Shown piece after piece: positions 51,874 through 52,434 of a stretch of DNA of 64,000 bases. Each line of letters begins with the position of its first letter. Position 1 is the stretch's first letter. The notes beneath the pieces are model-generated. The model was not told the origin of the DNA and made no database searches. It worked only from the letters and a program-made list of their open reading frames with translations. Source of the DNA: Eledone cirrhosa (lineage: Eukaryota); assembly GCA_964016885.1 (NCBI GenBank), contig OZ024743.1:89156001-89220000 (forward strand). Direction: 5' to 3'. Made by a program: the position numbers and the translations under genes.

Positions 51874-52434
51874 TAAACAATTAAGTTAAAAATGTACATC
51901 TACATATGCATACTGAAATACTAGTGTGTATATGAATACACACACGTATACATATGCAGATGCAACAAGTCCTTCACTGGTTGCTTTACTGTGAGCAACC
52001 CAGCTATTCTGTATGTAAACACACAGACAAACCGGTTTTTAGAGTCATACTGGTTTTCGAGGAAACACCTTCCCTCTATTCTCCAGAAAGCCAGACAAGG
52101 AATATTGAACTAGTTTCGTTGTTGTTACAACTCATCAGCAATATTTACCTATCTACCGGCCTTTCTGGAGAATTGTAAAAGCACATATCGTTATATGCTT
52201 TTTCTATGAAAATTAGTAGTGGGCAGACTAATTTGCATAGAGTGTGAGTACGCACCGGTTCAGCGGAGACGATAAAAACAAATAACGAAACGAAATTAAA
52301 TTTCGCTTCGTTTGTAACTCACTTTTGTATGACTGACGCTTAAACAATTAAGTTAAAAATGTACATCTACATATGCATACTGAAATACTAGTGTGTATAT
52401 GAATACACACACGTATACATATGCAGATGCAACA
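51874..52434 (-). mobile_element. 467-bp hammerhead-bearing element, 1.2 units long
   Basis: 94-bp direct repeat (51874-51967 = 52341-52434). Non-coding and embedded in (TA)n arrays interrupted by CG. Confidence 0.8.
52101..52145 (-). ncRNA. Minimal type I hammerhead ribozyme
   Basis: AATATTG-CTGATGA-GTTGTaacaACAAC-GAA-ACtaGT-T-CAATATT: perfect 7-bp stem I, 5-bp stem II and palindromic ACTAGT stem III. Confidence 0.85.

Follow-up and report, generated by a model that had tools for sequence, protein, structure and literature searches.

A protein-free hammerhead repeat with Penelope-like insertion ends in Eledone cirrhosa, likely a retrozyme mobilised in trans

Metazoan non-LTR retrozymes are known as RNAs and circles. 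They are described as non-coding tandem units of low GC, each with one type I hammerhead, highly self-paired and bearing a weak palindromic stem III (PMC7229834). Their units measure 170-400 nt in that study, those of mussels about 350-390 bp (Cervera and de la Pena 2020, PMC7229834), and a link to Penelope-like elements (PLEs) was proposed there; according to a 2020 review, metazoan retrozymes show no motif that would reveal the mobilising element (PMC7761336). Li, Clavereau and Pollet (2026, bioRxiv 10.64898/2026.07.22.740005) have since concluded, from co-occurrence and homology to the terminal repeats of PLEs (pLTRs), mainly in vertebrates, that retrozyme monomers, dimers and multimers depend on PLEs.

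PLEs leave insertions of a recognisable kind, with 5' truncation, partial tandems, a 5' inverted copy, a tail and a bias towards microsatellites (PMC8557442). In vitro, the anole PLE (Poseidon, PMC11167929) initiates internally, at two adjacent stem-loop sites downstream of its hammerhead and on AT-rich DNA. Naiads target (TA)n and are described as lacking canonical hammerheads (PMC8557442), and both dimer-type hammerheads in PLE repeats and the idea of a circular template have been discussed before (PMC4209133).

Here we describe element A, found in a window of 64,000 nt of Eledone cirrhosa DNA (contig OZ024743.1), together with a sister array B, a more distant family C and an element D (Table 1). 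Element A is a copy, truncated at its 5' end, of a 467-nt type I hammerhead repeat that codes for no protein and occurs in high copy number; it sits in (TA)n and is probably a non-LTR retrozyme that a PLE mobilised in trans. On the features that can be tested, the A/B class is of a known kind, the non-LTR retrozyme, and is not an autonomous PLE: unlike coding PLEs, A and B have no RT or GIY-YIG ORF, none being found within or between their units on ORF inspection. Whereas the metazoan retrozymes are known as RNAs and circles, A and B are known here from DNA alone. They share with the units of PMC7229834 all the traits listed above except size, since 467-468 nt exceeds 170-400 nt and falls within the 51-972 bp of the 2026 preprint. 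A U.U mismatch at the stem II base is common to B and the axolotl HHR_Amex2 (PMC7229834).

With the pseudo-LTRs and tails of PLEs (Poseidon of Anolis, PMC11167929; Naiad, Neptune and Nematis, PMC8557442), A and B have in common two adjacent ends downstream of the hammerhead, an AT-rich or (TA)n target, truncation, tandems and a 5' inverted copy. The dimensions differ: the putative tail is 62-69 nt long in A and B against 30-40 bp in published PLEs (PMC8557442), and 234-250 nt separate the cut from the first of the two ends, site X, a distance that in the anole element is roughly 85-92 nt (by subtraction from the positions in PMC11167929). Fixed priming sites and inverted arms, seen here, are not mentioned in the available part of PMC7229834. 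Our conclusion is that of Li and colleagues, reached from insertion anatomy and in a mollusc. We found no cephalopod retrozyme in the literature searched, an incomplete sample; supplement file 2 of PMC4209133 contains no octopus entry, and the 2026 repeat annotation of Octopus vulgaris nowhere uses the word 'ribozyme' in its main text. A pattern scan of metagenomes returned 32 loci, none with a stem I longer than 3 bp (0/32) and none with a BLAST match to A or B.

Table 1. Positions of the elements and of their landmarks in the window
Feature	Position	Strand	Remarks
Element A	51874..52434	-	1.2 units of the 467-nt hammerhead repeat, 5'-truncated, within (TA)n
94-nt redundancy, RNA 3' copy	51874..51967	-	terminates at fixed site X, adjoining (TA)n
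94-nt redundancy, RNA 5' copy	52341..52434	-	identical, with three family-rare alleles
Left (TA)n flank	51539..51875	.	TACG interruptions
Right (TA)n flank	52434..53235	.	contains a short re-copy of element A's last 8 letters
Beta-tubulin intron	48907..58074	+	GT..AG; houses A, B, C2 and D
Type I hammerhead of A	52101..52145	-	stems I-III and core
Stem I of A	52139-52145 with 52101-52107	-	7 bp
Core of A	CUGAUGA 52132-52138; stem II 52118-52131; GAAA 52114-52117	-	
Palindromic ACUAGU of A	52109-52114	-	
Predicted cut of A	between 52108 and 52107	-	after GUU
Long arm bearing the hammerhead	52078..52173	-	closed by a 13-bp outer helix
Neighbouring hairpin	52059..52076	-	directly 3' of the arm; equivalents in B and C2
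TATG..CATA hairpin	52203..52241	-	block best conserved in sequence between A and B; in C2 only the 5' half recognisable
Site X, internal copy	52339..52352	-	small hairpin where A and B both end
Site Y	52270..52276	-	UUUAU/CG (slash marks the end); X1 contigs join (AT)n here; target-side end of B's inverted arm
Array B	55845..57690	-	3.94 units, each of 468 nt; GUA in all four hammerheads
Inverted arm at B's 5' end	57690..57749	+	60 nt, covering the stretch of the unit between sites X and Y
Element C2	54516..54918	+	third and more distant family; GUC hammerhead with a stem III of 3 bp; same orientation as the tubulin pre-mRNA
Element C1	1150..1440	+	second copy of family C; 5' inverted arm; 3' end as in C2
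Element D	55001-55815	-	546-nt unit; hammerhead intact, with GUA and with stems II and III both long

Element A and its relatives in a beta-tubulin intron

Element A is 561 nt long and is flanked on both sides by long (TA)n tracts. The earlier note had described it as 1.2 units with a 94-bp terminal redundancy, at a period of 467 against 468 in its sister, and this holds: 94 nt match exactly at a period of 467 (51874-51967 = 52341-52434), periods of 466 and 468 yield runs of only 4, and the cores of B are spaced by 468, 468 and 470. The repeated 94 nt belong to an incomplete second unit and are no LTR, and the copy contains one hammerhead, which makes it a monomer-type copy. A has no coding frame: its single ORF (ATG, non-repeat, at least 30 aa) is of 74 aa and on the antisense strand. 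The (TA)n around A is very long (about 340 + 800 bp) and interrupted by TACG, B's flanks being short, and the 8-letter re-copy of A's end sits just inside the right tract. On the plus strand, exons of a beta-tubulin (best named identity a gastropod, 99%) stop at 48906 and restart at 58075; thus A and B lie antisense within one 9.2-kb intron.

Array B is made of four complete units head to tail, which carry no mismatches save one extra TA and no ORF between the hammerheads. Its global alignment with A contains 307 identities over 427 aligned positions, the two families being about 70% alike where they align, and scores 177 when the best of 200 shuffles scores -7; with the core trimmed off, the local score is still 154 against 48 for the best shuffle. 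Scores so far above the shuffles indicate that homology extends well beyond the core. Family C is homologous to B (z 14.1) and A (z 4.6) upstream of the core and shows a weak likeness to them downstream (z 3.0 and 1.9); it repeats the same succession of helices in other letters, the TATG..CATA pair being only half kept. No homology was detectable between element D and any of A, B and C (z 2.0 or below); the long 5' inverted arm of D carries several differences from its direct arm. Within C2 there is a 33-bp internal triplication; if active, C2 would cut the tubulin intron, to which it lies in sense orientation. The direct arm of C1 (1263 region, with 54700-54920 for comparison) breaks off within stem I, 4-5 nt short of the catalytic core.

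The window is rich in other repeats. Short fold-back elements with long perfect inverted arms lie in (TA)n at 49500-50040, 50820-51035, 51130-51540 and 1570-1930, with no complete hammerhead in the strict scan, and are possibly other PLE-mobilised families. Several partial copies of a SINE-like repeat occur at 53350-54200 and 51410-51480, the repeat being present also as a 195-bp tandem at 23782-24158, and there is a 9.5-kb array of about 484 copies of a 20-bp minisatellite at 29019-38567. Broken remnants of non-LTR retrotransposons, with RT plus C-terminal domain, are found on the minus strand at 4911-6335 and 59600-62200; their relatives include an Octopus bimaculoides protein at 57%, among many others.

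Of 20 sequence runs found to hold the repeat, four were examined in detail, and head-to-tail joints of 466-468 nt are present as DNA in runs X21, X1 and X12. Among the runs listed none is of RNA, which carries no information on expression. In X1 the summed word depth is mostly 2-7 x 10^5, a value that fits a very abundant family and is not a copy number. We rejected the 17 organism codes among the runs as a species range, since the family-typical sequence found at depths of 5-32 in X6 and X12 would also be expected from trace DNA of a high-copy repeat.

The earlier note had further proposed that selection acts on the size of the unit. The alignment of A and B contains 29 indels, 81 nt in total, and under random signs they cancel to a net of at most 1 nt with P 0.077, so that chance alone may account for the matching unit lengths (P about 0.08). 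The segment from the cut to the end measures 234 nt in A, 250 in B and 140 in C. Family C has at least 420 nt visible, and about 450 by a hand sum if the part of it not seen is as long as in A and B, an estimate that mildly favours a size constraint. Selection on unit size is thus kept as a possibility.

The hammerhead and its conserved RNA fold

Element A has the CUGANGA / GAAA / NUH core of a type I hammerhead, with stems I, II and III in type I order. Scanned strictly for full motifs, the window yields eight complete hammerheads, and 20 block shuffles yield not a single one. No Rfam family matched at its gathering score; Hammerhead_HH9 (RF02275) matched over the whole model at 52085-52156(-), with 38.6 bits and E 2.9e-7, below its gathering score of 52, which rules out the Rfam family label and not the motif. 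Matches of the mir-297 type, far under the cut-off, were set aside as noise from the TA repeats.

The triplet before the cut is GUU in A and GUA in B; C has GUC, as do some reads of family A: the 52108 variant that turns GUU into GUC occurs in 187 of 533 X21 reads and in about 2% of the X1 depth. A change in stem III, at 52111, has a similar read count in X21; with it the palindrome would stay self-complementary through G.U pairs. GUU is a weaker hammerhead triplet, which we counted against the retrozyme explanation for A. Counted against it as well is the failure of eight out of nine Xenopus retrozyme dimers to cleave in vitro (bioRxiv 10.64898/2026.07.22.740005). By computation, stem III forms solely between two copies, with a dimerisation energy of -4.6 kcal/mol for A and -6.0 kcal/mol for B. 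The ACUAGU is identical in A and B, and mixed dimers, predicted to be active, could form in trans.

Around the core, the letters of the stems differ between A and B and the pairing is kept, as the earlier note had observed: all the stems that it named are found at equivalent positions relative to the cut, with the AACA loop and ACUAGU in common. The same is true of the outer helix (-65..+30 relative to the cut in A, -61..+25 in B), of the neighbouring hairpin, which in B was taken from free folds, and of the TATG..CATA pair. The unit RNA is predicted to be 68% paired (linear-monomer z -10.8 in A and -7.6 in B), and in A the minus strand folds better (-166.6, z -10.6) than the plus strand (-130.9, z -6.1). 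The consensus energy of A and B is -49.0, against -18.0 +/- 3.9 in 100 column shuffles, and remains at -36.7 against -12.6 +/- 3.9 (best shuffle -26.0) once the ribozyme arm is removed; the consensus of the opposite strand also beats its shuffles (-31.4 vs -14.5 +/- 3.8). A conserved RNA fold common to A and B is therefore well supported. It is predicted to be identical in the linear and the circular form, and so structure cannot choose between a multimer and a circle.

The reads, for which 40 of 70 variants were listed, lend the fold independent support. Positions 52119 and 52130, which form one base pair of stem II, vary together (405/561 and 413/588 X21 reads; 27% and 36% of the X1 depth), and 51982 and 51997 likewise change jointly in a subfamily of A. 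Among the remaining listed changes at predicted pairs, 14 preserve minus-strand pairing and 4 break it, a tally that leaves out one variant on a pair that the MFE structure draws through the core. Hence, of the claim that selection acts on RNA structure, the conserved fold and the compensatory pairs segregating within family A stand. Covariation outside the arm is not significant, with 13 two-sided pair changes when shuffles average 6.7 and reach 14, and neither is the three-family MAFFT consensus fold (-13.4 vs -8.0 +/- 3.0). A count of 19 of 68 pairs changed on both sides, matched by 0 of 500 shuffles, was rejected as proof because the structure is derived from the same two sequences, which makes the argument circular.

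Fixed ends, proposed cycle and rival explanations

In RNA sense, A ends 234 and B 250 positions past the cut, in the same small hairpin and within about 4 aligned nt of each other, and each meets (TA)n through 2-3 shared letters. C1 and C2 have a common 3' end, which in C2 resembles that of B. The ends of A, B and C are fixed, distant from the ribozyme cut and not randomly permuted, which lends no support to a circular permutation of endpoints, for which the earlier note had suggested a check. Site X is absent from the loose ends of X1 among those listed, so that the evidence for its being fixed comes from A, B and both copies of C. A second end, Y, lies 62-69 nt further 3': at least six X1 contigs connect (AT)n to family A there, at 52272, and the 60 nt of B's inverted arm correspond to unit positions 252-311. 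The inverted arm of D begins a few letters beyond a TTTATCG, that of C1 at a site other than Y. Pile-ups of read ends in X21 were discarded as insertion ends, six of the seven listed coinciding with AATT, the restriction ends of a RAD library. Inside (TA)n, a target-site duplication is unreadable.

The few copies at hand, A, B, C1 and C2, present between them a fixed 3' end, 5' truncation, a partial tandem and a 5' inverted copy. Judged by their sequence, the A, B and C ends are a PLE insertion anatomy without the coding body. They agree with published PLE insertions in their truncation, their partly tandem make-up, the inverted copy at the 5' end and the microsatellite setting, and also in a putative tail, longer than the published one. 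The earlier note had considered fixed ends attached to a protein-coding PLE body as evidence against its reading; the fixed ends are there, and the coding body is absent in these copies.

The DNA itself displays the hammerhead motif, units in tandem, truncation at the 5' end, the fixed end X, a further end at Y, an inverted arm and (TA)n as the target, with no ORF. From these features a cycle may be assembled, of which we infer the transcription, the cleavage, the ligation and the priming by a PLE protein. Tandem copies would be transcribed from the minus strand, and paired hammerheads, joined through the self-complementary ACUAGU, are predicted to cut this RNA to unit length. The units may then be ligated into circles, as the mussel and coral retrozymes suggest. 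A PLE protein would nick (TA)n and begin reverse transcription at the fixed internal loop X, probably primed by 2-3 nt of AU/UA pairing with the target. Reverse transcription would pass the ribozyme junction, for 1.2 turns in A and 3.94 turns in B, the number of turns being visible in the DNA. At times the opposite strand of the target would serve as primer at Y, and this could produce the inverted arm whose anatomy is seen in B.

Could such repeats arise without any RNA intermediate? A DNA-level minisatellite might grow by unequal exchange or slippage in (TA)n, its covariation stemming from template switching at quasi-palindromes and not from selection on RNA; indeed the plus strand forms hairpins too (consensus -31.4 vs -14.5 +/- 3.8), pair counts outside the arm are not significant and the central hairpin of B is composed of low-complexity TA sequence. 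However, the unpaired catalytic core is invariant in three families while the stems change, single changes at paired sites mostly give G.U on the minus strand, and the insertions are dispersed, 5'-truncated and sharply ended, with fixed 3' ends and inverted arms, which leaves this reading very hard to believe. Almost as improbable, in our view, is that A and B are mere truncated terminal repeats of autonomous protein-coding PLEs and not a self-standing non-autonomous family. Fixed 3' ends, an inverted arm and a hammerhead are pLTR features, and the Xenopus retrozymes are homologous to pLTRs (bioRxiv 10.64898/2026.07.22.740005), yet B consists of complete units in direct succession with no coding sequence between the ribozymes, read joints close the unit upon itself at 466-468 nt, and no X1 loose end among those listed suggests a long unique body.

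A closer competitor accepts the same element and changes only its template, which would be an uncut multimeric transcript of a genomic array, with a hammerhead that is slow or dispensable and no circle copied. Copying from X beyond 234 nt must cross the cleavage junction, and the template is thus either a ligated circle or an uncut multimer; the earlier suggestion that greater-than-unit length fits a circular or multimeric template is supported as far as a head-to-tail template goes, whichever of the two it was. Tandem joints do occur as DNA, and the direct and inverted arms of B together span exactly four units, from X to X, as a linear four-unit RNA would. The cut site of A is weak by the usual ranking of triplets. 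In vitro, moreover, the anole PLE uses chiefly uncut RNA (PMC11167929). Against an uncut multimer, the hammerhead has been kept intact, with compensatory changes, and both the duplication of three family-rare alleles in A and the units of B without mismatches would follow directly from the re-copying of one circle; a small homogeneous master array would also explain these last two. We consider the uncut multimer a serious possibility, somewhat short of an even bet, within the preferred reading of A as a retrozyme mobilised by a PLE.

Rare alleles and the circular template

The redundancy of A offers another handle on the template. A carries minority alleles at nine of the sites listed, the others being at 70% or more of the X1 depth, and in six of the nine the RNA strand has changed from A to G (p 0.003-0.025 when the background share is set at 0.2-0.3, on the listed sites). 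Three of the nine lie in the redundancy, in both copies; the allele at 52424 occurs in 0 of 236 X21 reads and has no X1 depth. To the extent that sequence can tell, rare A-to-G alleles duplicated in this way lean towards a circle, and we put the circle as template at roughly even chances. Since these alleles are found in both redundancy copies of A, a genome-wide survey could separate circle from multimer from DNA alone.

Cephalopods practise heavy A-to-I editing, and the A-to-G pattern looks like such editing fixed by reverse transcription. One X21 locus, at 52036-52055, is represented by about 113 reads with a single start and 14 differences, at least seven of them clustered A-to-G changes on the RNA strand (T-to-C on the plus strand); it is possibly a hyper-edited retrocopy, or a single molecule that was amplified. 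Counting against editing, most of the clustered A-to-G sites of this locus are predicted to be unpaired. In X21, A>G outnumbers U>C significantly (p 0.004, partly owing to one locus), which is not so in X1 (p 0.16), and the neighbour preference of ADAR is not significant among the listed variants (5' G in 2/27, p 0.21). A search of the literature, which was not exhaustive, produced nothing clearly fitting ADAR-edited genomic retrocopies. With these points in mind, we advance only tentatively, and as a doubtful proposal, that these elements are fossils of rolling-circle reverse transcription, in which a PLE enzyme starts at two fixed priming loops to copy a circular RNA of approximately 467 nt, and that A-to-I edits of the circle enter the genome with every turn.

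In any event, elements A, B and C add a different kind of evidence on the mobilisation of retrozymes, namely insertions into (TA)n that show the fixed ends typical of PLEs, a second end and inverted arms, features which persist across diverged families. The possible editing record in A could settle the question of the template. If the proposal were true, editing would act as a mutator of these repeats, size and fold together would be a cargo code, and the elements would constitute a genomic record that directly tests the proposed, unproven circular-template step in the transposition of retrozymes and PLEs.
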